Source: Mollicutes bacterium | GTDB lineage: Bacteria > Bacillota_I > Bacilli_A > RF39 > UBA660 | Direction: 5' to 3' | Assembly (NCBI GenBank): GCA_012520055.1 | Contig: JAAYPA010000020.1 | Location: forward strand, 1-62,227 | Length of the DNA: 62,227 nucleotides | Part shown: piece by piece, positions 6,665-34,370 of the stretch | Layout of the letters: every line of letters begins with the position of its first letter | How positions within the stretch are numbered: position 1 is the stretch's first letter | Notes under the pieces: model-generated | Database searches by the model: none | What the model saw: the letters and a program-made list of their open reading frames with translations, nothing else | Told to the model about the DNA's origin: nothing | Made by a program: the position numbers and the translations under genes

Positions 6665-8461
6665 ATGGATAAAATTATTAATATTGCCGTAGTGGCCCAT
6701 GTTGATGCCGGTAAAAGTACCTTAGTTGATGCCCTACTTAAACAAAATGGTGTTTTTAGAGAAAATGAAGTCGTAGTAAACCAAGTGATGGATCGTAATG
6801 ATTTGGAACGTGAAAGAGGGATAACTATCTATTCTAAAAACTGTGCTATTCGCTATAAGGACTATAAAATAAATATAGTTGATACTCCCGGACATGCCGA
6901 CTTTTCTTCTGAAGTAGAAAGAGTTATTAAAACGGTAGATACCGTTATTTTATTGGTTGATTCATCAGAGGGTCCAATGCCACAAACTAGATTTGTTTTG
7001 AAAAAAGCCTTAGAACATAATTTAAAACCAATTTTATTTATTAATAAAATAGATAAGGCAGATGCCCGTGCATCAGAAGTTGTTGATATGACTTTTGATC
7101 TTTTTTGTGAATTAAATGCTACTAATGAACAATTAGATTTTCCTATTATATATGGTATAGCTAAAAATGGTATTGCAAAGTATAGTATGGATGATGAGAA
7201 TGCTGATGTTAAACCATTACTAGATACTATTATAAATAAATACGAATATTATAAAGGCAATCCTCAAGATAATTTACAATTACAAGTATCTAATTTAGAG
7301 TATGATGAATATATTGGTAGACTAGGTACCGGACGTATTACTAAAGGAAGTATTAAAAAAGGAGAAACAGTCAGTCTAGTTAAAAATGATGGATCTACCG
7401 AAACTTTCAAAATTACTAAAATATTTGTTAATGAAGGAATATCTAAAATAGAAGTCAATGAGGCTTTTTATGGGGACATAGTAATTGTAGCTGGTTGTCC
7501 TGATATTTCGATAGGGGATACAATATGTACTTTTAATATACTTGATTCATTACCACCAATTGAAATAGAAAAACCAACTTTAAGTATGAACTTTGTAGTT
7601 AATGACGGTCCTCTTGCTGGTCAAAGTGGTAAATACTTAACCAATCGTCATTTAAAAGAAAGATTAGAACGAGAACTTGAAACCAATGTCGGTTTGGAAG
7701 TTGAAGAATTACCGAATAATGATGGATTCAAAGTAAGTGGTAGAGGGGAATTACATCTTTCTATCTTGCTTGAAAATATGCGTAGAGAAGGTTATGAACT
7801 ATGTGTAAGTAAACCAGAAGTTTTATATGAAGAAATTGATGGTAAAAAATGTGAACCTTTTGAATCTGTTATTATTAATGTACCAAGTGATTATGCCAGT
7901 ACCATTATTAGTGATCTACAAGAAAGAAAAGCTATACTAATGAAAATGCAACAAATTGACAATTATACTAATTTAGAGTTTGAAGCTCCAACCAGAGGTT
8001 TAATCGGATATCGTAGTAATTTCATTACTAATACTAAAGGTGAAGGCATCATGATCAGAAGTTTCCTAAGTTACAAACCATATGCGGGATTTATTCAAAC
8101 CAGAAAAACCGGTGTGTTAGTTAGTATGGAAAATGGTACTGCTTTAGGTTATTCATTATTTAATCTTCAAGAAAGAGGAAAATTAATTGTTAAACCAAGC
8201 ATGGATATTTATGTTGGTATGATAGTCGGTGTACATAACAGAGAAAACGATTTGAATGTTAACCCATGTAAAAATAAAGAATTAACTAACATGCGTAGCA
8301 AAAGCAGTGATGATGCTATCATGTTAACTCCACCACTGATCTTTACCTTAGAAACAGCTCTAGAATTCATTGAAAATGATGAATATGTAGAAATTACTCC
8401 GGAAATTATCCGATTACGTAAAAAAATATTAGATACAAAACTACGCTATAGGAATAAATAG
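6665..8461 (+). CDS. typA: Translational GTPase TypA/BipA
   Basis: 'NIAVVAHVDAGKSTLVD', 'DTPGHADF', 'NKIDK'. EF-G-like domain order. Confidence 0.95.
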   Translation: MDKIINIAVVAHVDAGKSTLVDALLKQNGVFRENEVVVNQVMDRNDLERERGITIYSKNCAIRYKDYKINIVDTPGHADFSSEVERVIKTVDTVILLVDSSEGPMPQTRFVLKKALEHNLKPILFINKIDKADARASEVVDMTFDLFCELNATNEQLDFPIIYGIAKNGIAKYSMDDENADVKPLLDTIINKYEYYKGNPQDNLQLQVSNLEYDEYIGRLGTGRITKGSIKKGETVSLVKNDGSTETFKITKIFVNEGISKIEVNEAFYGDIVIVAGCPDISIGDTICTFNILDSLPPIEIEKPTLSMNFVVNDGPLAGQSGKYLTNRHLKERLERELETNVGLEVEELPNNDGFKVSGRGELHLSILLENMRREGYELCVSKPEVLYEEIDGKKCEPFESVIINVPSDYASTIISDLQERKAILMKMQQIDNYTNLEFEAPTRGLIGYRSNFITNTKGEGIMIRSFLSYKPYAGFIQTRKTGVLVSMENGTALGYSLFNLQERGKLIVKPSMDIYVGMIVGVHNRENDLNVNPCKNKELTNMRSKSSDDAIMLTPPLIFTLETALEFIENDEYVEITPEIIRLRKKILDTKLRYRNK

Positions 8462-8521
8462 TAATACCTTGAATTATATTAAATTAGAAGTTATAATTTA
8501 TTATAGAAAGAGGTAGATAAA

Positions 8522-9061
8522 ATGGAACTAAAGGGAAGCCAAACTGAGAAGAATTTAATGACAGCTTTCTCCGGAGAGAGTGAAGCTAGAAATAAGTATA
8601 CATATTATGCTTCAAAAGCAAAAAAAGATGGTTATGAACAAATAGCAGCCATCTTTGAAGAAACAGCAGGTAATGAAAAAGAACATGCCAAATTATGGTT
8701 TAAACTATTAAAAGGTGGAGATATTCCTTCAACTTTGGATAATTTAAAAGATGCGGCAGCAGGTGAAGATTATGAAGCAACTGAAATGTATGCGGAGTTT
8801 GCCAAAGTAGCTTATGAAGAAGGTTTTGAACAAATTGCCAAACTATTTGAAGGTGTAGCTCAAATAGAAGCACATCATCGTGATCGTTATTTAAAATTAG
8901 TTGGAAATATTGAAAATAATTTAGTATTTCATAAAGGTGAAGAAGTTGTTTGGATTTGTCGTAATTGTGGACATATTTATTATGGAGAAGATGCTTTAAA
9001 AGTATGTCCTGTTTGTTCTCATCCTGAATCATTTATGGAACTAAGATGTGAAAATTATTAA
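8522..9061 (+). CDS. rbr: Rubrerythrin
   Basis: Ferritin-like E..EH motifs plus a C-terminal rubredoxin-like 'CRNCG...CPVCSHP'. Confidence 0.9.
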   Translation: MELKGSQTEKNLMTAFSGESEARNKYTYYASKAKKDGYEQIAAIFEETAGNEKEHAKLWFKLLKGGDIPSTLDNLKDAAAGEDYEATEMYAEFAKVAYEEGFEQIAKLFEGVAQIEAHHRDRYLKLVGNIENNLVFHKGEEVVWICRNCGHIYYGEDALKVCPVCSHPESFMELRCENY

Positions 9062-9086
9062 AAGAAGTCATATGACTTCTTTTTTG
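9062..9086. terminator. Bidirectional terminator between rbr and the convergent Fem-like gene
   Basis: Stem agaagtc/gacttct flanked by an A-run and a T-run. Confidence 0.7.
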
Positions 9087-10328
9087 TTATAAACCTTTGA
9101 AATTTTGTAGTTCTTTCATAATTAAATCTCGACTTTGTAATTTTCTGAAATTAAATTCATCAAGTATGATATCAAATTCCCCGATAAATTCATAAATTAT
9201 TGGGTTGAAATTTAATTTAAATTGATTATATTCATAGTATTTTGAATTGCTACTTAGATCTGAAGCCAACCCGTTTAAATCTATATAATCATATTCATCT
9301 TTATAAATTTCAAATAATTTATTATATAAATAATAGTTTGGATATAAATTTTTAAAATCTTTATTATATCCACTACATAGTATTGTAATACGATTTAAAT
9401 ACTTAATAACAATAGCTCCGGCAATATAATCATTATTACCTTTCTTTAATCCTTCGGTAGCCTCAATAATATCATTTTTAAGTTGTAATAAGAGCTTATC
9501 TGATTCCATTTTTTCATTTAAGTTCTCTTCATTAGGATTATCTTGAATTAAATTATTACATTCATTATTATGCTCTAATTCCATATCATAGTTTTCTTGA
9601 GCTTGAATTAAAAACTTTTTATAATCTACTTTTACTAAAATTAATTCTGCCATGCTTTGTTTAGAAAAAATATTTAAAAGATTACGAAGACTATTAATAT
9701 TAAAGTTTGTTTCATTTTTTATGAAATTATAAAAAATATTAATATCTTTACTGGTAGCAATTTCATAATCTAAACCTCTGCGATTAGCATAGTTAAGTAA
9801 GTCTTTAGTTTCTTCATTAAGTTTATTGACATCATATTTTTTTAAATTGATATAAGTACTGATTCTTGGTGCGATTAACTCTAAAGGTTCAACTTCTCTA
9901 CGACGTTTAAACTTTAAATCTTTTAAATCATCAATAATTTTAACATTTTGATTATATGTAGCAGCAAAATTTTTCTTAGAATCTAATTCCCCGATAATAA
10001 TTTCTGGGTTAATCTTAATAAATACTATTTTTCGATCTTTACATCTTTTAACAATATCTTTAACAAAACTAGCTACTAAATCTGCATTGTAATAATCAAT
10101 TAAAAAACCTCTTGGAGCATAAGCATATCTACATAATCCAATTCTTTTATATAAAATTAAAGATGCTGCAACTAAATTATGGCTATCATCTTCATAACCA
10201 ATATAATCATAACTGAAACCTTGTTCACCCATTAATCGGGCATATGCAGAAGTTTGACAGTAATTACGTAAAGGATGATTGGCTGCAAATTGATCAAAAC
10301 GATCCATTGTTAGCTCTATAATTCGCAT
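9087..10328 (-). CDS. FemAB-family peptidoglycan interpeptide-bridge aminoacyltransferase
   Basis: N-terminus '[25 protein letters not shown]', a central coiled-coil insert, and 413 aa, typical of FemX/FemAB-type proteins. Confidence 0.75.
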
Positions 10329-10431: not shown

Positions 10432-11658
10432 ATGAAAATTAAAAATGTTTATGCAAGAGAAATTTTAGATTCAAGGGGTAATCCGACAATTGAAACAGAT
10501 TTAGAACTGGAAAACGGCATTTTAGTAAGATCTGGTGTACCCAGTGGAGCTTCAACTGGAGAAAACGAAGCTTTAGAATTAAGAGATAAAGATTCGGAAA
10601 GATATCATGGTAAAGGAGTATTAACAGCAGTAAATAACGTTAATACCATTATCAAAGATGCTTTAATAGGTAAAGATTTAAATCAAGAAGAGATTGACAA
10701 TTTATTATTGGAATTAGATGGAACACCTAATAAAAGTAAGTTGGGTGCCAATGCGATTCTTTCTGTATCGTTATGTGTGCTAAAAGCATTAGCAAAATTA
10801 AATAATCAAGAAATATATGAATACTTTGGTAAAGCAGGAGCGCTTCCTATTCCGATGATGAATATTATAAATGGTGGGGTTCATGCCAGTAGTGGTTTGG
10901 AAATCCAAGAATTTATGATTGTTCCTAAACAATCTACTTTTAAAGAAAGATTAAGATGTGGTTCAGAAGTATTCCATACTTTAAAAAAATTGTTAGCAAA
11001 TAATGGTTTTTCTACATCTGTTGGTGATGAAGGTGGTTTTGCACCAAATTTACATACCATCGAAGAAGCTTTAGATTATATTGTTAAAGCTATAAGTGAT
11101 AGTAATTATGTCCCCGGAAAAGATATATGTATTGCCCTAGATTGTGCAGCCAGTGAATTCTTTGATGGAGAAAAATATATAATTAATAAACAAAAAATAA
11201 CTAAGGATGAATTAATAAACTATTATGTGGGATTAATAGAAAAATATCCAATAATCAGTATTGAAGATGCCTTTGCGGAAAATGACATAGAATCTATTCA
11301 AAGATTAACTGCATTAATTGGTAATAAAATAATGTTAGTAGGTGATGATTATTTTGTCACTAACATTAAATATTTACAAAAAGGAATAGATGAAGAATAT
11401 AATAACGCAATCTTACTTAAACCTAATCAAATAGGTTCTGTTACAGAAATGCTAAAAACTATTGAACTGGCTAAGAAAAATAACTATAAGACAATTATTT
11501 CCCATCGTAGCGGAGAAACAGAAGATACAACAATTGCCCATTTAGCTGTTGGTTTGGATTTAGGTTATATAAAAACCGGTTCATTAAGCCGTGGGGAAAG
11601 AATCTGCAAGTATAATGAGCTATTAAGAATTGAAGAGTATAAGGGAAAAAATGAATAA
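10432..11658 (+). CDS. eno: Enolase
   Basis: '[14 protein letters not shown]', '[13 protein letters not shown]'. ATG 10432 follows SD 'ggtgag'. Confidence 0.97.
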
Positions 11659-18979: not shown

Positions 18980-19687
18980 GTGATGGTGAAGTTTATTGTA
19001 GTTGATGACAATAGTGAATTTCAAAATATTATTTGTAAAGTGATAGATAATACCATGTTTAAAACCGAAGAAGAATATTATATTGAAAAATACAATAAAT
19101 ACTGCTGTGATTTACATAAGGCTATCGTGGATTGTTCAACTCAAAAAATTTATATTTTAGACATTGATTTAGGTCACTTACATTCCGGATTGGATATTGC
19201 TAAAGAAATCCGTAAGTATGATTGGGATGGAGAAATAATTTTTATTACCAGTCATGATAAGATGTTTGAAACAGTTTATCGTAATATTTTTAAAGTCTTT
19301 GATTTTATTGAAAAATTTATTTCTCTTGAAGAACGTCTTGCTAAAGATTTAAAAATAATCGTGTCTCAAAAAGCAGATTATGGGAAATTTTATTATTGTA
19401 ATAATAAAACGGATATGCAAATTTATTATAAAGATATTACTTATATTTACCGAGATACTGCCGAAAGAAAATTGGTCATTAAAACTACCAACAATAAATT
19501 TCTTTTAAATAAATCTATTTTAGAAATATCAAAAGAATTAGACAATAGATTTAAACAAGTTCATCGCGCCTGTATTGTTAATAAAGATCGTGTAAATATA
19601 TTTAATTGGTCAAAAGGCTACTTTATTTTAGATAATGGTGAAAAAGTTGATCTTTGTTCTAAAAACTTTAAGGAGAATATCTCGTGA
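18980..19687 (+). CDS. agrA: LytTR-family response regulator (AgrA-like)
   Basis: REC domain ('IVVDDN', 'ILDIDL') plus a LytTR C-terminus ('FKQVHRACIVNKDRV'). Confidence 0.85.
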   Translation: MMVKFIVVDDNSEFQNIICKVIDNTMFKTEEEYYIEKYNKYCCDLHKAIVDCSTQKIYILDIDLGHLHSGLDIAKEIRKYDWDGEIIFITSHDKMFETVYRNIFKVFDFIEKFISLEERLAKDLKIIVSQKADYGKFYYCNNKTDMQIYYKDITYIYRDTAERKLVIKTTNNKFLLNKSILEISKELDNRFKQVHRACIVNKDRVNIFNWSKGYFILDNGEKVDLCSKNFKENIS

Positions 19688-20946
19688 CTGATATAAATAA
19701 TTTCCCCGGTTTTTTAACTATCGTATTTAGTTATTTTGTCTTTTTATATGCCTATGGTTATTTTAATGATATTAAAGTTATAATCAACTATAAAACTTTT
19801 TTCATTATTTTGTTATCTTCAATTTTAATCTTTATTAATAATCTTTATAATGACCAATATTTAAAGATTCCGGTAGCTTTTTGTATTTTAACTTTTTTCT
19901 TTTATTATATATTTAATACTTCTATCTTTGAAAATATGTTTTTAAGTTTTTTTATAGGATTAACATCCTTAGTTGTTGAATTTATTTTATCTATTTTTGT
20001 TTGTTTAGCTATATTAAATATATCCGATATAAATGATAGTTATTTATTAAAAGATTGCTTTTCTTTAATCTGTTTTTGGATTTATTATTTTGCACATAGA
20101 ATCCCATTTATAAAAAATATCTATAAAAAAGCATTGAATTTTTTTGAAGGTGCCAAAAAAAGAACCATTTATATTTGTATTTCTTTATTTATTATTTATT
20201 TCTTATATACGGTATATGCTGTCGATTATCCCAATATCAGATTTTATATTTTCAGTCTTATTATAATAATATTAATAAGTACTTTGATTATCTTTTATTT
20301 TAGAGAAGTACACAACAACAGTGTTTTAAATATTAAAAATAAATACTTAACAGAAAATCAAATTATGTATAAAAATCTCATAGATGATTTTAGAATTATA
20401 AAACATAATTTATTAAATGATTTTTTATTTATAAGTACTTTATGTGATATTAATACTCAGCAATTAATCAAAGAAAAAGTATCAAAATATAATTTTAATA
20501 AATATGATTTTAATTTTTTTGATAAATTACCCGAGGGGTTACAAGGAATTTTATTTTTTAAATCCAGTATTGCTCAGAAAAAGAATATTGATTTCTATTT
20601 AGAAAATAATATTAATTCTGAAATTCAGAAATGTATCAAATTATACATTGATTTATGCGAAGCCATTAGTATTGCCTTGGATAATGCAATAGAAGCCAGC
20701 AGTAATGCTAAAATTAAAGCAGTTTATATTAATTTAGATGAGGATAACAACAAAGTTATCATAGAAATATTAAATACTTATAGTAATGATATTGACTTAG
20801 ATAATATTGGTAATAAAAATTATAGTACTAAGATAACTAAAAGTGGACTGGGTTTATATTATATAAAGCATCTAAATAAGGATATTAGTATTAAAACTTC
20901 TTTCATATTTGATTTATTCAAAATCCAAATTACGGCAATAAAATAA
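19684..20946 (+). CDS. agrC: AgrC-like (HPK10) membrane histidine kinase
   Basis: About 6 TM helices, an H-box 'FRIIKHNLLND', and a GHKL ATPase ('LDNAIEAS', 'GLGLYYI'). The start overlaps the regulator stop (GTGA). Confidence 0.8.
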   Translation: MTDINNFPGFLTIVFSYFVFLYAYGYFNDIKVIINYKTFFIILLSSILIFINNLYNDQYLKIPVAFCILTFFFYYIFNTSIFENMFLSFFIGLTSLVVEFILSIFVCLAILNISDINDSYLLKDCFSLICFWIYYFAHRIPFIKNIYKKALNFFEGAKKRTIYICISLFIIYFLYTVYAVDYPNIRFYIFSLIIIILISTLIIFYFREVHNNSVLNIKNKYLTENQIMYKNLIDDFRIIKHNLLNDFLFISTLCDINTQQLIKEKVSKYNFNKYDFNFFDKLPEGLQGILFFKSSIAQKKNIDFYLENNINSEIQKCIKLYIDLCEAISIALDNAIEASSNAKIKAVYINLDEDNNKVIIEILNTYSNDIDLDNIGNKNYSTKITKSGLGLYYIKHLNKDISIKTSFIFDLFKIQITAIK

Positions 20947-20965
20947 GGCTTTATAGCCTTATTTT
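20941..20965. terminator. Bidirectional terminator shared by convergent agrC and agrD
   Basis: Stem ataaggct/agccttat, loop ttat. Both stop codons lie inside the hairpin. Confidence 0.7.
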
Positions 20966-21063
20966 ATTAATGATTTTGGACATTCCGGTTCTTCAAGTAA
21001 CCAGAACCAAGAAGCTGCGGAATAGCCAATTGATTTTCCTAAAGCAGCTATCGCTTCAATCAT
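20959..21063 (-). CDS. agrD: AgrD-type autoinducing-peptide precursor (34 aa, absent from the ORF track)
   Basis: Hand translation gives MIEAIAALGKSIGYSAASWFWLLEEPECPKSLIK. SD 'aaaggag' lies 8 nt upstream, immediately after the agrB stop. The tail 'EEPECPKSL' matches the conserved acidic AgrD tail. Confidence 0.75.
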   Translation of the reverse strand: MIEAIAALGKSIGYSAASWFWLLEEPECPKSLIK

Positions 21064-21084
21064 GAAAACCACTCCTTTCTTTTA

Positions 21085-21681
21085 TTAATTCAATTGACAA
21101 TATAAATAATTATTATATGAAACATTAAAAATCTTATAAATAAGTGGTGTAATAAGTATGCTTTGATGTATTAAGGCCAAAGCAATAATAGTTGTTATAT
21201 CGCTGTCAATTAATAAAATTAGGAGGCTGTATATAAGCACAAAAAACATGGTATATAATTTTAATTTTGTACGATATTTTTCACTGGTAATCGGTCTTTT
21301 TGGTGTATCTGCCGGACTATAAATTACATATATTATGAGAGAAAATATAACTGCAAATATCTTTATAATAAAATTTAAAGAAATTACTGTTGATAAATAC
21401 GGTAATCCGATAAAAGCAATACTAGATAGTATCCAGCAAGTAAGACTGTTTTTAGCATGAAAACCAAAACTAAAACTTCTTAAAGGGACATAAAAGATGA
21501 AAAATAATAAGCTTTCCCAAAAGATGTCTAAGATGGTATTGATAGTGAAAAAAACGAGAAATCTACTAACATTTAGATAAATGGCTTCTAATCCATATCT
21601 TATTTCTGAAAGTTTAATATCATCATATTTATTTAAATTTTTAATCTTGTTCATAATGGAATCGACTACTATTCTTTTCAC
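21085..21681 (-). CDS. agrB: AgrB-type membrane cysteine peptidase (AIP processing)
   Basis: 'RSFSFGFHAKNSLTCWILS' matches the AgrB catalytic H...C region, and it has 4-6 TM helices. The start is uncertain (GTG 21681 preferred; alternatives are TTG 21696 and ATG 21654). Confidence 0.8.
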   Translation of the reverse strand: MKRIVVDSIMNKIKNLNKYDDIKLSEIRYGLEAIYLNVSRFLVFFTINTILDIFWESLLFFIFYVPLRSFSFGFHAKNSLTCWILSSIAFIGLPYLSTVISLNFIIKIFAVIFSLIIYVIYSPADTPKRPITSEKYRTKLKLYTMFFVLIYSLLILLIDSDITTIIALALIHQSILITPLIYKIFNVSYNNYLYCQLN

Positions 21682-21970
21682 TTTATCACCCGGCAATAAA
21701 AGAGTATCACAAAATATATTTATTGATAATTTTTATGTTTGAAATGTCGTATTTTGTAGATAAAACAATATCATTCTCACTATATAATTACAAACAATTC
21801 ATTTAATGCATCTTCTAAAGCTTTTAGACCGATTTCGACACAAATTTTAAAATTTTGTTGTTATACTGGCAATGTCACTTAAAATAAAACCCACTTAGTT
21901 TGCTTAAAGAACTGTTTTTTGTGATGTCTTGAGGCTGTACAAAATTTAGTTAGAAGGGAAGGTGTTATGC

Positions 21971-22771: not shown

Positions 22772-22847
22772 AAGGATTTATTAATCCTTTTTTTGATGAT
22801 ATATTAAGAATAGATATGATATAATAAATTTTAGCGAGGTGAGCATC

Positions 22848-25340
22848 ATGAGTTTTTTAAGAAAACTTGTTGATACTGAATATAAAGAATTAAGAAGATT
22901 TGAAAAATTAGCTGATCAAATAGAAGCTTTAGATGAAGAATACTCTAAAATGAGTGATGAAGAATTAGCAGGTAAGACAGCTATCTTTAAAGAAAGATTG
23001 GCTAAAGGAGAAACTTTAGATGATATTTTAGTGGAGGCTTTTGCTACAGCAAGAGAGGTAGCTTATCGTCAAATTGGTGAAAAACCATATCGAGTTCAAT
23101 TAATTGGTGGTATGGCTATTCACTATGGTAATATTGCCGAAATGAAAACCGGTGAAGGTAAAACAATCACGACAGTATTACCGGCTTACTTAAATGCTTT
23201 AACTGGTAAAGGAGTACATGTAGTTACCGTAAATGAATACTTAACTGCTCGTAATGCCGAATGGATGGGACCTATCTATAATTTTTTGGGTGTAACCGTA
23301 GGTGTTAACTTAAGAGAACTTACTCCAGAACAAAAAAGAGAAGCTTATAACTGTGATATAACTTATTCTACCAATAATGAAGTTGGTTTTGATTATTTAA
23401 GAGATAATATGGTAGCCCGTAAAGAAGACAGAGTTCTAAGAGATTTAAACTATGTTATTATTGACGAGGTCGATTCTATATTAATTGATGAAGCAAGGAC
23501 ACCATTAATTATTTCCGGTGGTAAAATGAATTCGGCTAATCTATATATGGATGCCGATAAAGCTGTCAAAAGATTAAAAGCAGATGAAGATTTTAAAATA
23601 GATGAAAAAATAAAATCTGTTATGTTAACTGAACAAGGCAGTCGAAAACTAGAAACTTACTTCAAAGTTGATAATTTATATGATGCTAACAATACCGCTT
23701 TAGTCCATCATATTAACCAAGCATTAAAAGCAAACTATGCTATGAAAAATGATGTTGATTATGTAGTTGAAGATGGAGAGGTTATTATTGTTGACCAATT
23801 TACCGGTCGTCTAATGCATGGTCGACAATTCAGTGAAGGTTTGCATCAAGCTATTGAAGCTAAAGAAAATGTTAAAATTAATGAAGAAACCAGAACAATG
23901 GCTACCATAACATTTCAAAATTTATTCAGAATGTATAGCAAAATATCAGGTATGACTGGTACAGCTAAGACTGAAGAAGAAGAATTTAGAGATATTTATA
24001 ACATGTATGTTATTGAAATACCAACCAATAAACCATGTATTAGACAAGATATGGCTGATTTAATTTTTGCAACCGAAAAGGGTAAATATAATGCCATTGT
24101 TTCATTTATTAAAGAAGTACATGAAACAGGGCAACCAATTCTGGTAGGTACAATATCCGTTGAAAAGAATGAATATCTATCATCACTGTTAACAAAAGCA
24201 AAGCTAAAACACGAAGTCTTAAATGCTAAAAATCATGCTCGTGAAGCAGAGATTATTGCCAATGCCGGTCAAAAATATGCGATTACCATCGCTACTAATA
24301 TGGCTGGACGTGGTACAGATATCAAACTTGGTGAAGGTGTAAAAGAATTAGGCGGTTTATGTGTTATCGGTACAGAAAGACATGAATCACGTCGTATTGA
24401 TAACCAATTAAGGGGTCGTTCAGGACGTCAAGGAGATCCTGGTTATTCTCAATTTTTTGTGTCTTTTGAAGATGAACTAATGCGTAGATTTGGAACAGAT
24501 CGTATTAAAACTATGATACAAAGTATCGGATATGATGAAACTCAACCTATCAGATCTAAAATGTTTACCAAAAGTATTGAAAGTGCTCAAAAGAAAGTTG
24601 AAGGCAATAACTACGATTCTCGTAAAAGTCTTCTTGATTATGATAATATCGTCAGTGAACAAAGAAAAATTATTTATGAAAAAAGAAACAATGTTTTAGA
24701 TATTGAAAATATACAAGAATCTGTTTATTTAACTTTCAATGATTATATTGCTGATTACATTGAATCTAAATTAGGTCAAAGTAATTCATTTACTAAAGAT
24801 GATTATCAAACCATAACTGATTATTTTAATAATAACTTTTTAAAATATCAAAAAATAGAAGTAGCAGATATCCAAAAATTAGATGTTGATAGCTTAATAG
24901 ATTATATTTATGATAAATTTATTGAAAATTTTGAATCTAAATTAAAGGAAGTTCCTCAAGAAATTATCAATGATTTTGAAAGACAAATCAGTTTAAGAGT
25001 TATTGATGAAGCATGGATAACTCACATTAACTCAATGGAACATTTAAGAGAAGGAATCGGACTTCGTGGTTATGGACAAACTAGTCCTCTTCAAGCCTAT
25101 GCTTTAGAAGGTTATGAAATTTTTGATCAAATGTTAGATACTATTGATTCTAATATTACCAACTTCTTAATGAAAGTAGAAATCAGACAAAATATTGCTC
25201 CTGAAAAGAAAACTCCAATATATACAAATGATGGAAAAGAAACAATCAAAAAATCTCCAACAAAAACAATAAAAATCGGGCGTAATGATCCATGTCCATG
25301 TGGCTCAGGAAAGAAATATAAACAGTGTTGTGGTAAGTAA
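22848..25340 (+). CDS. secA: Preprotein translocase ATPase SecA
   Basis: 'MKTGEGKT', the DEAD-like 'IIDEVDSILIDEARTPLIISG', and a C-terminal zinc motif 'CPCGSGKKYKQCCGK'. Confidence 0.97.
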   Translation: MSFLRKLVDTEYKELRRFEKLADQIEALDEEYSKMSDEELAGKTAIFKERLAKGETLDDILVEAFATAREVAYRQIGEKPYRVQLIGGMAIHYGNIAEMKTGEGKTITTVLPAYLNALTGKGVHVVTVNEYLTARNAEWMGPIYNFLGVTVGVNLRELTPEQKREAYNCDITYSTNNEVGFDYLRDNMVARKEDRVLRDLNYVIIDEVDSILIDEARTPLIISGGKMNSANLYMDADKAVKRLKADEDFKIDEKIKSVMLTEQGSRKLETYFKVDNLYDANNTALVHHINQALKANYAMKNDVDYVVEDGEVIIVDQFTGRLMHGRQFSEGLHQAIEAKENVKINEETRTMATITFQNLFRMYSKISGMTGTAKTEEEEFRDIYNMYVIEIPTNKPCIRQDMADLIFATEKGKYNAIVSFIKEVHETGQPILVGTISVEKNEYLSSLLTKAKLKHEVLNAKNHAREAEIIANAGQKYAITIATNMAGRGTDIKLGEGVKELGGLCVIGTERHESRRIDNQLRGRSGRQGDPGYSQFFVSFEDELMRRFGTDRIKTMIQSIGYDETQPIRSKMFTKSIESAQKKVEGNNYDSRKSLLDYDNIVSEQRKIIYEKRNNVLDIENIQESVYLTFNDYIADYIESKLGQSNSFTKDDYQTITDYFNNNFLKYQKIEVADIQKLDVDSLIDYIYDKFIENFESKLKEVPQEIINDFERQISLRVIDEAWITHINSMEHLREGIGLRGYGQTSPLQAYALEGYEIFDQMLDTIDSNITNFLMKVEIRQNIAPEKKTPIYTNDGKETIKKSPTKTIKIGRNDPCPCGSGKKYKQCCGK

Positions 25341-25400
25341 CTCGCAAGCCCAAGTAATATAAGGGAAAACGCGAGTTTTTCTTTTTTGCAAAAAATCGGC

Positions 25401-25424
25401 TAGAACCATGTTTAGAACCATTTT
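25401..25424 (+). repeat. Left copy of an imperfect 24-nt direct repeat (itself a tandem 'agaaccat' doublet)
   Basis: 'tagaaccatgtttagaaccatttt' against 'taaaaccatttttagaaccattaa' at 26717-26740. 20 of 24 bases are identical, with a 12-nt exact core. Confidence 0.5.
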
Positions 25425-25502
25425 GTGTCCATATTATAAAAAAGAAAATTTTATTATGGTATAATATTATATGAAGAAAAAACTTTATTCATGGGAGGTT
25501 TT

Positions 25503-26582
25503 ATGAAAAAAAGAAAAAAAGTAATTATTGTAATTACAGTTATAATACTTGTATTAATGTTATTTGTTGAATTATTTTTAAAAAGAATAATTAGTGCCTC
25601 TGTACATTTTCAATTATTACAACATTACGAAAATAGAACAGATATTTTATCATTTATTAATATAATTGTAACCACATTAATAAGTTTGCTTGTTTATAAT
25701 TTATCTAAAAAAATAGATGAACAAAACAAATTGGATAAAGAAAGAAAAAGATACGAATCAATTTGTGTAGTATACGATTACTTAAATGATATTATTTTAT
25801 ACATAAAGAAGAAAGTTTTTAAAGATAAGGAAGATTATTTTCAACTTGATTTTAATGATGATTTTATGAAGAATGTTTATAATCTTAATAAAGATGTTTT
25901 AACAGAATCTGATATTGAGTATATTAGAAAAATAGATCGCTCATTAAATAATTATTTAAAAAATATTCAAGGTAGTAATAATAATTCAAAACTTTCAATT
26001 AAATGGGTTTATAAAAACATTTTTGATTTAAATATAGAAATAGATAAAATCGAAAAAATGAATAATTTGGTAGATACAGATATTATGATTAATATTCAAC
26101 TCTTAAATGTACTTTGTAAACTTAGAAAAGAACTTGGATACAATTATTGTAAAAATGTTAAATATAGCAAATATACATTAGATATTACCAATTTTAAAAA
26201 TAATATTCAAATTGAAAAAAAATATGAAAAAGAATATTATATGAAAAATGATTCTGGTTATGTTCAAATATATGAACCGGTTTTTTATACTTTCGGTAAT
26301 CCATTCATAAATGGTGGTGTAATATATAAAGGCAGTATTAAAGATTATAAATTAAATGGTTATGGAGAATATTTTTATTATAAAGAAAATAAAAATGAAA
26401 AAATATATGTTAATAGTGATGACCTTGTTGAAGTAAATGCTACTAAAATAAAGAAAATACTTGAAAACGAAAATATTAATTGTAATACTAATTTAAAGTT
26501 TGATGGTTATTTTGAAAATGGTATAATTAACAATGGCACAATTAAATTTACGGATTCAGAACAAAAAGATTTGACTATTTAA
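25503..26582 (+). CDS. Membrane-anchored protein with C-terminal MORN-like repeats; function unknown
   Basis: Two N-terminal TM helices and a long helical middle. 'YKGSIKDYKLNGYGEYFY' and 'FDGYFENGIINNGTIKF' are MORN-like. It has its own extended -10 (tggtataat, 25457-25465) and SD gggagg. Confidence 0.6.
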   Translation: MKKRKKVIIVITVIILVLMLFVELFLKRIISASVHFQLLQHYENRTDILSFINIIVTTLISLLVYNLSKKIDEQNKLDKERKRYESICVVYDYLNDIILYIKKKVFKDKEDYFQLDFNDDFMKNVYNLNKDVLTESDIEYIRKIDRSLNNYLKNIQGSNNNSKLSIKWVYKNIFDLNIEIDKIEKMNNLVDTDIMINIQLLNVLCKLRKELGYNYCKNVKYSKYTLDITNFKNNIQIEKKYEKEYYMKNDSGYVQIYEPVFYTFGNPFINGGVIYKGSIKDYKLNGYGEYFYYKENKNEKIYVNSDDLVEVNATKIKKILENENINCNTNLKFDGYFENGIINNGTIKFTDSEQKDLTI

Positions 26583-26597
26583 AAATAGTCTTTTTTT
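26573..26597 (+). terminator. Intrinsic terminator after the MORN gene
   Basis: Stem gactatt/aatagtc, loop taaa, T-run. Confidence 0.75.
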
Positions 26598-26716
26598 CTT
26601 GTCTAACTCCAGAATAGCTGTGGACAAAAAGTTAGACATTGTAATTTATTAATAGGCACTTATTCAAGCATTTAAAAGGGTTTAAGAAGCTTTCAAAAAT
26701 ATAACACAATTACACC

Positions 26717-26740
26717 TAAAACCATTTTTAGAACCATTAA
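26717..26740 (+). repeat. Right copy of the imperfect direct repeat
   Basis: See 25401-25424. It lies directly next to the 3' end of the integrase relic. Confidence 0.5.
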
Positions 26741-26766
26741 GGCACAAAAAAAGGCATTTCTGCCCA

Positions 26767-27050
26767 TTATTTCGTCTTCAGTTCATTCATTACATCAACA
26801 ACACTATTTAATGCACTATCGAACATATAAGAATAAGTATTAAGAGTTTCATTAATATCAGAGTGACCTAAATATTTTGATACAACACTTATGTTAGCGC
26901 CACTATTAATAAGTAGAGATGCACAACTATGTCTAAAATCATGTAATCATATTTCTTTAACACCAGCTTTTTCTGCTACTACAACTTTTCTTCTTCTAGC
27001 AGTAGAGTAAGGAATAGGTGTAATACCTCTGGTATATTTGTAAGTCTTTC
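26767..27050 (-). pseudogene. 3' relic of a tyrosine recombinase / phage integrase (about 94 codons, in-frame TGA)
   Basis: Minus-strand translation gives '...AGVKEI*LHDFRHSCASLLINSGANISVVSKYLGHSDINETLNTYSYMF...'. This is the R-H-R-Y catalytic C-terminus. The N-terminal two-thirds are missing, there is a stop at 26947-26949, and its own terminator gggcagaaatgcc plus T-run lies at 26745-26766. Confidence 0.75.
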
Positions 27051-27054
27051 GGCT

Positions 27055-27258
27055 CAAGCAAGTGAAGAAAGAGATTATGATAAAACTCCTTTTTGGCGCA
27101 CATTAAAATCGAATGGAGAGTTAAATGAAAAATATCCGGGAGGCATAGAATTACAAAAAAAATTACTAGAAGAAGAAGGCCATAATATAATAACAAAAGG
27201 TAAGAAAAATAATAAATATTATGTTAAAGATTTTGAAACAAAATTATATGATCTTTAA
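27055..27258 (+). pseudogene. 3' relic of an MGMT/Atl-like DNA-binding-domain gene
   Basis: 'TPFWRTLKSNGELNEKYPGGIELQKKLLEEEGHNI' resembles the C-terminal half of MGMT-family proteins. There is no start codon, and upstream it runs into the antisense of the integrase relic. Confidence 0.4.
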
Positions 27259-27286
27259 TAAAATTGAATTATAGGAGATGATAAAC

Positions 27287-27614
27287 TTGATCAAAACATA
27301 TAATAAATTGGTAAGAGATAAAGATACCGGAAATTATTAAAAATAACAATGGTATTCCCAAAACCAAAATTCTTAATGACATTGAATACAAAAAAGAACT
27401 AGAAATTAAACTGACTGAAGAAATAAATGAAGTATTAAATTCAGCGGATGGGGAAAAACGGTTGGAAGAACTTGCTGATGTTTTAGAAGTTGTAAAATCT
27501 CTAGCAGAACTTGAAAAAAACACTTTAGATGATATTATTGATTTAGCAAATAAAAAAAGAGAAAAACGCGGAGGATTTGAACTAAAAATATATTTAGAAG
27601 AAGCAGATGAATAA
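27287..27614 (+). pseudogene. MazG-like nucleoside triphosphate pyrophosphohydrolase, disrupted by a 1-nt insertion
   Basis: 'LIKTYNKLVRDK' then an extra g at 27323. The restored frame reads 'IPEIIKNNNGIPKTKILND...EELADVLEVVKSLAEL...KREKRGGFELKIYLEE'. Confidence 0.6.
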
Positions 27615-27668
27615 TCTACTTTTTAATTGAAATGAATCTTATGATATAATGATTGAGAGGTTGAAATT

Positions 27669-28361
27669 ATGAATGCAAAAAAGGTTAGTAAATTAATTAA
27701 AGAAATCCGAAAAAAACATAATTTAACTCAAAAAGAATTAGCTGATAAATATAATGTAACTTATCAAGCAGTAAGTAAATGGGAAAATGGTAAAAACTTA
27801 CCTGATATGATGTTATTAAAACAAATCAGTAAAGATTTTAATATTAGTTTGGATGACATTCTGGAAGGAAAATATAATACTAATAAGAGATTAAATATAT
27901 CTATAGTCATTATAATGATATTGATAAGCGGATTAATATATTTAATTATTAATATTGATAATGAAGATTTTAAATTTAAAACAATTACTACGGAATGTAA
28001 TAATTTCAAAATTTCCGGGATCATATCTTATAGTAATAAAAAATCTGCCATTTATATTGATACAATAGAATATTGTGGTGGAGATAATTTAGAGATTTAT
28101 CAAAACATTGAATGTAATTTATATGAAACTAATAACAATATTATCAAAAGAATAAGTACTTGTGATTATAAAAATAATCAAAATGTTTCACTTGAAAAAT
28201 TTCTGGAAAACATTAATATTACCATAGACAATTATTATCAAATATGTAAAGAATTTAAAAATAATTTATATTTGGAAATAAATGCTACTGATAAAAATAA
28301 TAAAATAACTACTTACAAAGTACCTTTAACTTTAAAAGAAAATTGCTCAACCAATAGTTGA
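27669..28361 (+). CDS. XRE-family HTH protein with a membrane anchor and an extracytoplasmic domain
   Basis: 'LTQKELADKYNVTYQAVSKWENGKNLPD', one TM ('ISIVIIMILISGLIYLII'), then a Cys-containing C-terminal domain of about 130 aa. Confidence 0.75.
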   Translation: MNAKKVSKLIKEIRKKHNLTQKELADKYNVTYQAVSKWENGKNLPDMMLLKQISKDFNISLDDILEGKYNTNKRLNISIVIIMILISGLIYLIINIDNEDFKFKTITTECNNFKISGIISYSNKKSAIYIDTIEYCGGDNLEIYQNIECNLYETNNNIIKRISTCDYKNNQNVSLEKFLENINITIDNYYQICKEFKNNLYLEINATDKNNKITTYKVPLTLKENCSTNS

Positions 28362-28429
28362 GTTTTTTCAACTTTCACGTTATCGTTTTTTCTAAATTTA
28401 TTAGTTAGAATGCTAGTGAAAGGAGTATT

Positions 28430-29083
28430 ATGAAAAAAATATTATTTTTAATTTTAAGTTTATTATTAGTAGGAGGCTGTACTAACAAAGAAGCTTTTCC
28501 TCTTCCCCAAGTTTCAGAAGGATTAAGAGGGCAGCTAGGAATTGATGCTAATATCAACGAAGCAACCATAGATAATTATTTAAATATAGAAGATGCTTTA
28601 TATTATGATATGAGAATGTTAAAAGATGACGCTGAATATGAAAATATCGGTGGAGATTCTTATTTATCAGGTTTTGTAAATGGCTTTGAAGTATTACCTT
28701 TTCCTTATTTATGTACCATAAGTGGTTTACCTGAAGAAGTTGGAAAATCATATAATGGAGAAACATTATATACTTTGACTTCTGATGGAGAGTATATTCC
28801 TAATTATGAAGAATCATATGAAGTACTGGAATATTTCTTTCCTAAAGATAAAATAATTTTCTTAATGTGTGGTGGCGGCGGTTATGCCGGACTGACCAAG
28901 AATATGTTGATAACTTTAGGCTGGGATGAAACTAAAATATATAATGTAGGTGCATATTGGTCATATGAAGGAAATAATAATGTAAAAGTAAAAACCACCA
29001 GAAATAATAAGATAGTATATGATTTTTGGAAAATACCTTACCATGATATTAACTTTAAAACTTTACATAAATTAGAACAATGA
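28430..29083 (+). CDS. Lipoprotein with a probable rhodanese-like domain
   Basis: Lipobox 'LLLVGGC'. 'IIFLMCGGGGYAGLTKNMLITLGWDETKIYNVGAYWSYEG' resembles a rhodanese active-site loop and C-terminus. Confidence 0.5.
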   Translation: MKKILFLILSLLLVGGCTNKEAFPLPQVSEGLRGQLGIDANINEATIDNYLNIEDALYYDMRMLKDDAEYENIGGDSYLSGFVNGFEVLPFPYLCTISGLPEEVGKSYNGETLYTLTSDGEYIPNYEESYEVLEYFFPKDKIIFLMCGGGGYAGLTKNMLITLGWDETKIYNVGAYWSYEGNNNVKVKTTRNNKIVYDFWKIPYHDINFKTLHKLEQ

Positions 29084-29523
29084 AAAAAATACTGATAATA
29101 ATATTTATAGGTATATGTTTAATAATAATTTTAAATAAACCTAAAACATTTTATCTGGAAAGTAAATATTATGGCTTTGGAGAATTATCAAATATAAATC
29201 AGGTTACTTTAAATAATTTCATTAAAGAAAAAGAATCATTTGTGCTATATATATATGGTAATTGTGTATGTAGTACAAAATTTAACAGTATTATTAAAGA
29301 GTTTGCCGAAAGAAATAATATTGTAATCCATACCTTAGATTCAGAATTAGTAAGTCAAACAGAAATTGATGATATCAAGTATTTTCCAACAATAGTTGTC
29401 TTTAAAAAAGGAAAAATTGTTGATTACTTAAAATCAGATCGTGATGATAATTTGATATATTATGAATCATCTGAAGAATTTTCCAAATGGCTAACTTCTT
29501 ATATTAATATTAATAGAAAATAG
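29080..29523 (+). CDS. Membrane-anchored thioredoxin-fold protein with a CxC motif
   Basis: N-terminal TM. 'FVLYIYGNCVCSTKF' occupies the CxxC position, and 'FPTIVVFKKGKIVD' is the typical cis-Pro region. The start overlaps the preceding stop (ATGA). Confidence 0.55.
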   Translation: MKKILIIIFIGICLIIILNKPKTFYLESKYYGFGELSNINQVTLNNFIKEKESFVLYIYGNCVCSTKFNSIIKEFAERNNIVIHTLDSELVSQTEIDDIKYFPTIVVFKKGKIVDYLKSDRDDNLIYYESSEEFSKWLTSYININRK

Positions 29524-29575
29524 GAGCTTATTTTCTATTTTTTATGTTATAATAAAATTGAGAGGTGCATGAAAA

Positions 29576-30680
29576 ATGCCAGTAGAAGAACTTTTAACTA
29601 AATTAGATGAATATATCCAAAGAGTAGATTTTATTGGGAGGTCTCTTTGACCCGGAAAGTAAAAAAAATAAAATCAAAGAACTGGAAGAAAAATTAAATG
29701 ATCCCAATATATGGAACAATCCCATTGAGGGAAATAAAATAAATTCAGAATTAACCGGTTTAAAAAAAGAAATAGAAAATTATGAAAATATTAAAAATGA
29801 TTTATCTGAATATCAAGAATTACTAACTATCAGTAATGAACCTGATATAGTTAATGAAATAGAACAAAATATTAAAAATATTAATGAAAGAGTTGAAAAT
29901 TTAGAACTAACTACTCTTTTAAATGGAAAATATGATGAGAATGATTGTTATCTAGAAATTCATCCTGGAGCAGGTGGAACAGAAGCTTGTGACTGGGCCG
30001 GAATGTTACTTAGAATGTATGAACAATTTTGTAATAAAAGTAATTATTCTTATGAAGAAATCCATATTCAAGATGGTGAAGAAGCTGGCATAAAAAGCGC
30101 TATTATTAAAATTTCTGGTAAAAATCCATATGGATATTTTAAAGGTGAGCAAGGTGTTCATCGTTTAGTACGCATCAGTCCATTTGATTCAGGAGCAAGA
30201 AGACATACATCATTTGCGGCAGTATCAATTATTCCTGAGATTGAAGATGCTGGAGATGTTGTTATTAAACCGGAAGATATTAGAGTAGATGTTTATCGTA
30301 GTAGTGGTAAAGGTGGACAAGGCGTCAATACTACTGATTCGGCCGTAAGAATAACTCATTTACCAACGGGAATAGTAGTAACATGTCAAAATGAAAGAAG
30401 CCAAATTAAAAACAAAGATATTGCAATGAAAATTCTTATGGGTAAATTAGAACAAATCAATGAAGAAAAACACAATAGTGAATTAAGTAGTTTAAAAGGA
30501 AACCAAAATATTAATTTTGGTAGTCAAATTCGTAATTATACTTTAGAACCATATCGGTTAGTAAAAGACGTCCGTACCGGTTATGAAACTTCGGATACTG
30601 ATGGTGTACTTGATGGAAATATATTTCCATTTATGAAAGAATATTTAAGGGTAGTTGGTAGTAATGAAAAAAATAATTAA
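29576..30680 (+). CDS. prfB: Peptide chain release factor 2, expressed through a programmed +1 frameshift
   Basis: ORF0 ATG 29576 runs to 'GGGAGG TCT CTT TGA C', with TGA at 29648-29650. The +1 frame continues from GAC 29649 to 30680. 'SPFDS', the SPF-type motif and the 'GGQGVNTTDSAVRITHLPTG' GGQ motif are present. Confidence 0.95.
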
Positions 30681-33440: not shown

Positions 33441-34370
33441 ATGGCAGTTAAGGTATTTAAAACAATTGACGAGCAAATTCATATACTTCAAAATAAAGGC
33501 ATGATTTTTGATGATGTTGATTTTGCCAAAGACATACTGATCAGAGAAAATTATTTTTTTGTCAGTGGCTATCGTCATTTATTTTTGAAAAGTCCCAGGG
33601 ATAGAAGTTTTATTAAGGGAACTACTTTTCGAGAATTATATGCGGTGTTTAATTTTGATAGACAAATAAGGAATATTATTTTTAAAAATTTATTGATAGT
33701 AGAAAACAATATGAAAAGTATTTTTTCCTATCAATTATCAAAAAAGTATGGGTATCGAGAATCAGATTATTTAAGAGCATCAAATTTTACGACTAATTCG
33801 GAAAGATCTCGCCAAGTTAATGACTTACTTAAAAAAATGAAAAGACAAATTAGAGTAAATGGAGGACAGCACTCAGCAACCAGTCACTATATTAATAATT
33901 ATGGATATATACCGATGTGGGTTGTTGTTAAAGTTTTGTCTTTTGGTATAATCAGTGAATTATTCTTAATTATGAAAAGAGAAGATCAAGAAGCTATTGC
34001 CAAAATATATAATTTAAGTGTTGAAAATTTAAGTGATTATATGCCGATACTGGCTAACTTCCGTAATTTGTGTGCTCATGAGGATATCCTATATAATCAT
34101 AGGACACAAAGATCTATAGGAGATACCAAATATCATTATGTATTAAATATTCCTTTGATGGATGGTGATTATATTTATGGAAAAAATGACTTCTTTTCCT
34201 TAATAATTATTTTAAAACAATTATTAAGAGAAGATGAATTTAGACTATTAGTAAATGAAATGAGTTATGAAATAAATATCTTAGCCGGAAAATTGAAAAC
34301 TATTCAGATAGGAAAAGTTTTAGATGTCATGGGTATTCCCACTAATTTTAAAGAATTACTAAATATATAA
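33441..34370 (+). CDS. Abi_2 family (AbiD/AbiF-like) abortive-infection-type protein
   Basis: 'FKTIDEQIHILQNKGMIF', 'ENYFFVSGYRHLF', 'YIPMWVVVKVLSFG', 'LANFRNLCAHEDILYN'. SD aggtgagg before ATG 33441, and an extended -10 'tgctataat' upstream. Confidence 0.75.
   Translation: MAVKVFKTIDEQIHILQNKGMIFDDVDFAKDILIRENYFFVSGYRHLFLKSPRDRSFIKGTTFRELYAVFNFDRQIRNIIFKNLLIVENNMKSIFSYQLSKKYGYRESDYLRASNFTTNSERSRQVNDLLKKMKRQIRVNGGQHSATSHYINNYGYIPMWVVVKVLSFGIISELFLIMKREDQEAIAKIYNLSVENLSDYMPILANFRNLCAHEDILYNHRTQRSIGDTKYHYVLNIPLMDGDYIYGKNDFFSLIIILKQLLREDEFRLLVNEMSYEINILAGKLKTIQIGKVLDVMGIPTNFKELLNI

Follow-up and report, generated by a model that had tools for sequence, protein, structure and literature searches.

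The 3' end of secA in the Mollicutes bacterium contig JAAYPA010000020.1 (assembly GCA_012520055.1; RF39, UBA660) very likely served as the attachment site of a phage-like integrative element, of which an immobilised stump survives. We analysed a stretch of 62,227 nt of this contig, here called the window, and all positions refer to it unless another contig is named. Positions 25295–27028 begin within secA and run into the gap of about 4.2 kb that separates it from prfB, and they would represent the attL side of the element: the secA end itself, a pair of 9-mer repeats, one cargo gene encoding a membrane protein with MORN-like repeats, and the 3' relic of a tyrosine integrase gene. Relatives were found by a PrfB scan of genome contigs and by look-ups of exact proteins. 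Contigs or loci of relatives or metagenomes are numbered L001–L062, P0017 is an intact integrase, and X1–X4 are metagenome runs.

A sequence-only reading of the window had proposed that the secA–prfB gap is an integration hot spot that was hit and eroded repeatedly. The features it listed are all present at or near the places it gave (ORFs, repeats, Pfam matches), and for 25295–27614 the proposal holds. Alignment of the relatives, as that reading had advised, defined empty and occupied variants of the site in L002, L001, L003 and conspecific contigs. In L002 (72% PrfB identity) hpf, secA and prfB are contiguous, the empty state, and in L003 (Candidatus Aphodocola, 54% PrfB identity) the gap holds a HAD hydrolase and a zinc-ribbon gene. 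In conspecific contigs 25397–27028 is replaced by at least four other sets of genes, and in relatives the secA 3' end is present in tandem in as many as five copies with small modules between them.

The element boundary lies inside secA

Comparison with conspecific secA genes (L029, L037) revealed 1–4 differences over about 2.45 kb up to position 25294 and dense mismatches from 25295 onwards. The mismatches span the last 46 nt of the gene and the terminator, and past about 25396 the DNA is unrelated and leads into an ABC ATPase gene. This sharp divergence places the element boundary inside secA at about 25295, not at 25341 where the foreign segment had first been thought to start. The sequence common to all repeated copies starts with CCATGTGG (Pro-Cys-Gly codons of the SecA zinc-binding tail) and continues through the stop codon and the terminator. 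Since the repeated core spans all three, the element would swap the end of secA for a near-identical one that it carries itself, with the SecA terminus ...CPCGSGKKYKQCCGK retained. L039, L054 and L056 contain arrays of this core of about 45 nt.

The 9-mer pair downstream of the core has its counterpart in intact elements, which carry two to three TAGAACCAT copies at the equivalent place 3' of the core. A second pair adjoins the integrase end. The “imperfect direct repeats” of the sequence-only reading correspond to positions 25400–25422 and 26716–26738, which are identical at 21 of 23 positions; the repeat is real, but it is the best-preserved part of two longer units, each consisting of a core, a spacer of about 60 nt and a 9-mer pair, that bracket the cargo slot. 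We considered whether the 23-nt repeats are simple att duplications around one element and rejected this, as they form sections of these longer units, and the integrase is itself a member of that composite element. The window has four exact TAGAACCAT copies, three of them within the two pairs. A scan for exact TAGAACCAT found no attR-type cluster in the 62 kb; attL alone survives. We propose that the 9-mers are arm-type binding sites of the integrase.

Intact relatives share one layout

The intact 374-aa integrase P0017 passes the Pfam cut-offs for Arm-DNA-bind_4 (PF14657, 23.4 bits vs. 22.3, E = 4.6e-5) and Phage_integrase. The DNA of intact elements matches the window at 26581–27028 with 93–95% identity and at 25335–25438 with 90–92% identity, with unrelated genes in between. 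One layout of about 9–11 kb is common to the contigs with P0017-type integrases (L044–L048) and to metagenome loci L054–L062. Read in the orientation of secA, it starts with the secA 3' end and terminator, two to three copies of TAGAACCAT and variable genes on the secA strand, followed by a degenerate core, two further TAGAACCAT copies, the integrase terminator and the integrase gene, which lies on the opposite strand and reads toward secA. A 220-aa CI-like repressor, a divergent 84-aa gene and a replisome organiser (PHROG 428/5968) come next, then a helicase-loader-like gene, an HNH endonuclease and a second variable region. The layout closes with attR, made up of TAGAACCAT, TAGAACCAT, TAGAACCAG, a spacer of about 95 nt and a duplicate of the final ~45 nt of secA. 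The 9-mers stand in the same orientation at both ends, two to three about 60–76 nt past the core on one side and three about 95 nt before the attR core on the other.

All close relatives of the integrase whose contigs reach the flank sit at secA. The gene adjoins the integrase in L048, L056 and L060, and L044–L046 reach the secA stop codon or terminator. The attR arrangement of three 9-mers and a secA 3' copy is present in L054, L055, L056 and L059; the copies are displaced from secA in L054, L055 and L059, and in L056 copies of about 45 nt are found at both attL and attR. In L054 the attR core and the integrase are at least 9.4 kb apart, and the locus includes the repressor, the divergent 84-aa gene, the replisome organiser and the helicase-loader-like gene. 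The second variable region of L054 carries DpnII-like restriction-modification genes with an ATPase, that of L056 a type I system and that of L048 a large methyltransferase.

Neither ORFs nor PHROG matches for virion structural or lysis genes were found in L054, L044 and L048, and the same three contigs have no relaxase. A search for a packaging or hijacking module (terS, cpm/ppi or cos) turned up only the HNH endonuclease (phrog_144, E = 9.5e-24), whose weak match to a terminase small subunit family reflects the HNH part. IMG/VR holds no close relative of the integrase, and phages in GenBank reach at most 29% identity. A pattern scan of IMG/VR for the 9-mer pair gave 71 raw hits.

The secA target was also looked for among more distant integrases (about 69% identity) and is not shared there, one of them belonging to a relaxase-bearing element at recG. 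In L049 (5400–11400) and L050, an integrase 69% identical over the C-terminus is part of a Mob_Pre/AAA_25 mobilisable element beside the recG 3' end. This shows that the choice of target switches within the wider integrase family.

A single deletion may have immobilised the element

The integrase relic is 98% identical to the last 87 residues of P0017 (padded-query search) and differs from the intact gene in L044 at 7 of 261 nt, with five of the changes silent. At 26947–26949 the relic has a nonsense TGA where intact copies have AGA (Arg), and at 26827–26829 CAT has become TAT, which turns the His of the YxH motif, where the catalytic Tyr lies, into Tyr. An in-frame TGA might be taken as the sign of a donor using genetic code 4; we rejected this because the intact copies have AGA and the host has an RF2 gene with a TGA frameshift site. 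The prfB gene possesses the canonical CTT TGA C site for programmed +1 frameshifting at 29645–29651, with GGGAGG a few bases upstream, which means that TGA is read as stop and translation table 11 holds. The changes in the relic are best described as ordinary decay and not as a recoding signal.

The relic stops at 27028, and the MGMT-like sequence takes over at 27029. A 12-kb contig from another sample (L017) spans the junction, as do unitigs in four metagenomes. The missing part of the integrase and the element core would be expected to the right of 27028, the side on which the MGMT-like gene is also located, so that a single deletion suffices to explain the losses. As judged from the layout, it would have run from integrase codon ~287 to the middle of the MGMT-like gene and have removed integrase codons 1–287, the regulation and replication modules, attR, island DNA next to it with any further modules, a TfoX_C gene and the first ~78 MGMT-like codons. 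Left behind would be attL, one cargo gene and the integrase stump, which would then have gained the stop codon and the His-to-Tyr change. With neither an attR nor a functional integrase, the stump in the window is predicted to be immobile.

A similar case can be observed in the decayed element of L056, where at 8605–9825 an integrase without its first ~43 residues is fused in frame to the N-terminus of a 107-aa gene that normally lies beyond the HNH endonuclease. This fusion marks a second internal deletion of the element core, independent of the first.

Tandem arrays and the possibility of a cassette platform

In the live element, the arm-binding integrase would recombine a lambda-type attP, with the core between 9-mer arm sites, with the secA 3' end, and repeated integrations would stack modules in tandem. 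Arrays of this kind are found in L056, which has four to five secA 3' cores, and in L039, a bovine metagenome contig with a homologue of the MORN-like gene 3' of secA, which has five cores within 7.3 kb. The modules in L039 (6428–15700) comprise a TetR-like gene with a methyltransferase and the MORN-like gene; a peptidase of family S66, to which the MccF family belongs; a second tyrosyl-tRNA synthetase; a YoaP-type acetyltransferase; and a GNAT acetyltransferase with further genes. They look like resistance or immunity cargo. Two of the modules are flanked left and right by a 9-mer of their own (TAGATACGT at 6556 and 9109; TTACCCACA at 10800 and 12462), and matched module-specific 9-mers are what successive insertions by elements of differing arm specificity would be expected to leave. 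In L003, tandem TTTGTTTCCA repeats, an inverted GTTTCCA pair and a duplicated piece of terminator lie 3' of secA (8420–8600), which resembles the scar that a lost element of this type would leave.

The arrays also invite a different explanation, namely an integron-like platform in which modules bounded by secA 3' ends, the MORN-like cassette among them, are captured and shuffled singly by an integrase acting in trans and are not the remains of whole elements whose integrases were lost. The ends at the integrase are 93–95% identical between elements, yet the two core and 9-mer units enclose wholly different cargo; the five cores of L039 lie between modules of one to three genes, with no integrase in 17 kb; and the same P' leader with a pair of TATCTACAC precedes different genes in L029/L037 and in L039. 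However, the two L039 modules with their own 9-mer on both sides fit separate elements with separate integrases. The integrase-side core is degenerate, and conserved in this state across elements, which speaks against ongoing recombination at that core, and neither a free cassette circle nor an identical cassette in two contexts was seen. We therefore regard this explanation as unlikely, though it is the strongest of the alternatives. In its full form, for which the odds are similarly poor, the secA 3' end would be a gene-capture platform at which small promoter-bearing cassettes, each bounded by a secA 3' copy and integrase-specific 9-mers, are taken in, stacked and swapped singly by arm-binding integrases that satellite-like elements supply in trans. 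Their cargo would be, just as doubtfully, resistance, immunity and defence-type genes, among them the extra TyrRS, the S66 peptidase, the acetyltransferases, the ABC ATPase, the restriction systems and the MORN-like protein. If true, the platform would be a double-strand, arm-site-dependent analogue of the integron.

Two points count against the interpretation as the stump of an integrative element. No single contig contains both attL and attR of an undamaged element, as the integrase in L056 is 5'-truncated and fused and L054 is without attL. The internal 9-mer pair is located 1–2 kb from the functional core, an unusual position for arm sites, and the 9-mers could have another role, for example in regulation.

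Variation of the region within the species

Ten sibling contigs (L018, L020–L028) are 99.7–99.8% identical to the window right of 27029 and wholly divergent to the left of it. All ten have the intact 154-aa MGMT-like gene, preceded by a TfoX_C gene that is either intact or decayed. Further left, L020 (1–3570) carries two ADP-ribosylglycohydrolases, a PvuRts1I-like/SRA endonuclease (a family that cuts DNA with modified cytosine), two unknowns and YgjV, L021 a membrane protein and L027 the end of an IS110-type transposase. On the secA side, L033–L035 match the window and run from secA into the cargo gene, and in L029 (13107–13334) and L037 (3397–3753) secA is followed by two TATCTACAC copies and the ABC ATPase gene. 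The N-terminus of this ATPase resembles Lsa-type ABC-F proteins by eye; the contigs cover only the first 54 residues of the protein (PF00005, E = 2.5e-6).

The MGMT-like and MazG-like genes downstream were found in this species alone and probably represent an older layer; some sibling strains have intact versions of both. The MGMT-like protein matches PF01035 in its C-terminal half only (21.3 bits vs. a cut-off of 27) and reads PFWR where the catalytic motif would be PCHR. Seven contigs have the MazG-like gene intact (111 aa), and others, including L018 and L020, carry at least three independent homopolymer frameshift alleles of it; the extra A seen in the window is missing from most contigs of runs X1 and X4. 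These alleles could reflect ongoing loss or a switching similar to phase variation.

Segment 25357–27058 forms a unitig of its own in four metagenomes, and in three of them its depth is about 30–60% of that of the flanks, for example 99 vs. 229–245 in X1. Several contigs from other contexts end in or contain 25296–25340. The arrangement in the window is real, widespread and polymorphic, and homologous exchange surely spreads the variants within the species.

Flanks of 99.7–99.8% identity with sharp switch points would also be expected had the segment merely been swapped by homologous recombination through its flanks, with no site-specific element involved and the integrase relic a passenger. 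Such an origin is highly improbable: the left switch point coincides with the start of the 45 nt found in duplicate at the ends of elements from several genera, and the integrase relatives that reach the flank sit at secA with matching 9-mer clusters at both ends. An assembly chimera, mis-joined at the integrase/MGMT-like or the secA/cargo junction, is hardly credible, for although the site is a branch point of the assembly graph where many contigs end (25296–25340) or start (27029), L017 spans 27028/27029, L033–L035 cross from secA into the cargo, the 1,702-nt unitig (25357–27058) recurs in separate runs, and up to 93% of the sampled 31-mers of 25300–27100 were found in runs of about ten digester, sludge and bioreactor studies.

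The cargo slot and the MORN-like protein

In other elements, the cargo slot beside secA holds a Macro-domain protein with two unknowns, a metallophosphoesterase that matches the PADLOC candidate PDC-S10 together with a 326-aa unknown, membrane proteins of which one is, by eye, of the ZIP type, or other unknowns. In the window it holds the MORN-like gene. The label assigned to this protein by the sequence-only reading is weak: a YxGx..GxGxY motif can be recognised by eye, but the protein has no Pfam match at E ≤ 0.1 and no PHROG or PADLOC match. The AlphaFold (AF2) model, with a mean pLDDT of 80, displays two N-terminal TM (transmembrane) helices, a helical domain and a C-terminal domain of beta-hairpin repeats; it has no fold match in the PDB below E = 0.1. 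The family is small, with about 13 homologue clusters at about 50% identity, none of them annotated, and the exact protein is not on record as a called gene.

The same reading had counted the gene among those most likely kept for a function. In the sibling contig L017 (about 547–586, window 26380–26447) a 68-nt deletion shifts the frame and splits the gene into two ORFs, and the reduced depth of the whole segment in three of four metagenomes leaves the claim weak. In our reading the MORN-like protein is an accessory membrane protein that the population can do without; its genomic company does no more than hint at a role in phage exclusion or immunity.

The three-gene cluster beside prfB is resident

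The cluster of three extracytoplasmic genes at 27669–29523 had been counted among the inserted material, which the comparison with L001 (76% PrfB identity) contradicts. In this contig secA is followed after 26 nt by the regulator gene (XRE-TM), the lipoprotein gene, the thioredoxin-like (Trx-like) gene and prfB, with nothing of 25341–27668. Identities between the window and L001 are 63% for XRE-TM, 68% for the lipoprotein and 41% for the Trx-like protein, alongside 77% for SecA (C-terminal part), 76% for PrfB and 69% for YitT, and the six cysteines of XRE-TM are all kept in the L001 orthologue. The lipoprotein belongs to a large conserved family of 3,362 homologues in more than 100 clusters at about 65–70% identity. 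The same order directly after secA and the size of this family indicate that the cluster is resident and not foreign. This conclusion is weakened by L002, which is equally close and does not have the cluster between secA and prfB, leaving L001 as the only witness to ancestry at this exact site.

The lipoprotein has no Pfam match. Its AF2 model has a mean pLDDT of 85, and the top PDB matches found with Foldseek are all sulfurtransferases, although weak ones (E about 1e-2, TM 0.3–0.4, probability up to 0.97). Judging by fold and motifs, our best guess is that the cluster is most likely an extracytoplasmic sulfur or thiol-redox module under the control of a membrane-tethered regulator.

Base composition, which had been suggested as a check, does not separate foreign from resident genes in the gap: the GC content is 19.5% for the MORN-like gene, 20.8% for the resident XRE-TM and 21.6% for the resident Trx-like gene in a host of about 27%. 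A promoter scan was likewise uninformative in DNA of 27% GC, with 53 sites found vs. 37 ± 8 expected.

Features of the region and neighbouring loci

The coordinates of all features between secA and prfB are given below. Two further loci in the window were noted. An agr-like locus at about 18980–21700, with a LytTR response regulator, a HATPase_c_5 kinase, AgrB and a 34-aa ORF, is located upstream of a cold-shock gene, hpf and secA and is kept in all conspecific contigs. An Abi_2 (abortive-infection-like) gene at about 33441–34370 lies in a conserved region 3' of an amidase gene and is broken into two ORFs in contig L021.

Table 1. Features from secA to prfB, with positions in the window
Feature	Position	Strand	Remarks
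secA	22839–25340	+	ORF
att core, secA 3' ~45–46 nt	25295–25340	+	Encodes ...CPCGSGKKYKQCCGK*; supplied by the element
secA terminator	25341–25387	+	Hairpin and T-run, read from the sequence; copied with the core in L039, L054, L056
TAGAACCAT 9-mer pair	25401–25421	+	Proposed P' arm-type integrase sites of attL (putative function)
Variable cargo slot	25425–26588	+	Homology to intact elements stops at 25424–25438, resumes at 26579–26589
MORN-like ORF, 359 aa	25503–26582	+	GGGAGG ribosome-binding site before ATG at 25503
Degenerate secA 3' core (pseudo-core)	26610–26655	+	By-eye alignment with integrase-proximal regions of L054, L056, L044 and with true cores
Second 9-mer pair (TAAAACCAT, TAGAACCAT)	26717–26737	+	Adjoins integrase 3' end; in all intact elements
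Integrase terminator hairpin	26752–26765	−	
Tyrosine integrase 3' relic, residues 288–374 of 374	26767–27028	−	PF00589, E = 2.8e-13; tblastn
Deletion junction	27028–27029		Integrase codon ~288 joined to MGMT-like codon ~79; no clear microhomology
MGMT/ATL-like 3' part	27029–27258	+	Identical to 3' part of intact 154-aa gene in sibling strains
MazG-like gene, 111 aa when intact	27278–27614	+	One extra A at 27320–27322; Pfam match below cut-off
XRE-type HTH regulator, membrane-tethered	27669–28361	+	PF01381, E = 1.9e-17; outside domain with six Cys
Lipoprotein, rhodanese-like fold	28430–29083	+	Invariant Cys147 in MCGGGGYAG
Membrane-anchored thioredoxin-fold protein	29080–29523	+	CxC replacing CxxC, fast evolving; PF00085, E = 7e-4, below cut-off
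prfB	29576–30680		Starts after the ~4.2-kb gap 3' of secA

Comparison with known integrative systems

The live element would work like a lambda-type integrative element and, by its gene content, resembles a satellite of the PICI type (phage-inducible chromosomal islands) without a recognised packaging module. Like PICI and SaPI elements, it has a size of about 10 kb, an integrase at one end beside a repressor, a divergent early gene, a dedicated att site, a phage-type replication module, no capsid, tail or lysis genes, and accessory and defence genes near the ends. In contrast to these satellites, the element yielded neither a terminase small subunit nor a capsid-remodelling gene or cos site, only the HNH endonuclease; replication relies on a DnaD-like organiser and a loader in place of a primase-helicase, the hosts are uncultured low-GC Bacilli, and the target is secA.

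The attachment site shares with lambda attP the clustered direct repeats on both arms, an N-terminal arm-binding domain in the integrase, and an integrase gene that abuts the P' arm and reads toward attL. It differs in the core, which consists of about 45 nt of coding sequence plus the terminator and is not a short intergenic sequence, and in the cargo slot and degenerate core that lie between attL and the integrase.

ICESt1/ICESt3 and the related CIMEs at fda of S. thermophilus likewise combine a tyrosine integrase at the 3' end of a housekeeping gene with att-flanked modules that lack an integrase and stand in tandem; these elements are conjugative, whereas the element described here has no relaxase or conjugation gene, replicates in phage fashion and uses another target. 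SCC elements such as SCCmec at rlmH/orfX also insert in the last bases of an intact gene, build tandem arrays with 3'-end repeats and carry resistance or defence cargo, but they employ large serine recombinases (Ccr) and short direct repeats without arm sites, unlike the tyrosine integrase and clustered 9-mers found at secA. The likeness to integrons is in the arrays of short modules with recombination-site repeats and in the use of a tyrosine recombinase. In integrons the attC sites are hairpins of folded single strands, IntI lacks an arm-binding domain and most cassettes have no promoter, in contrast to the gene-3'-end copies and module-specific 9-mers seen here. No report of secA as an attachment site was found in the literature searched, and the element is of a newly recognised but conventional kind.

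Implications

With these results, what had appeared as an eroded hot spot becomes a defined system, for which the target (the final ~45 nt of secA), the recombinase family, candidate arm sites and the cargo slot can be named. The annotation of the region is corrected as well: the three envelope genes belong to the resident DNA, and the supposed MGMT-like and MazG-like pseudogenes prove to be alleles that vary within the species. The integrase and its att sites are a candidate tool for site-specific integration, and the secA site is a possible marker for accessory, defence and resistance genes in the poorly known Bacilli of digesters and guts.

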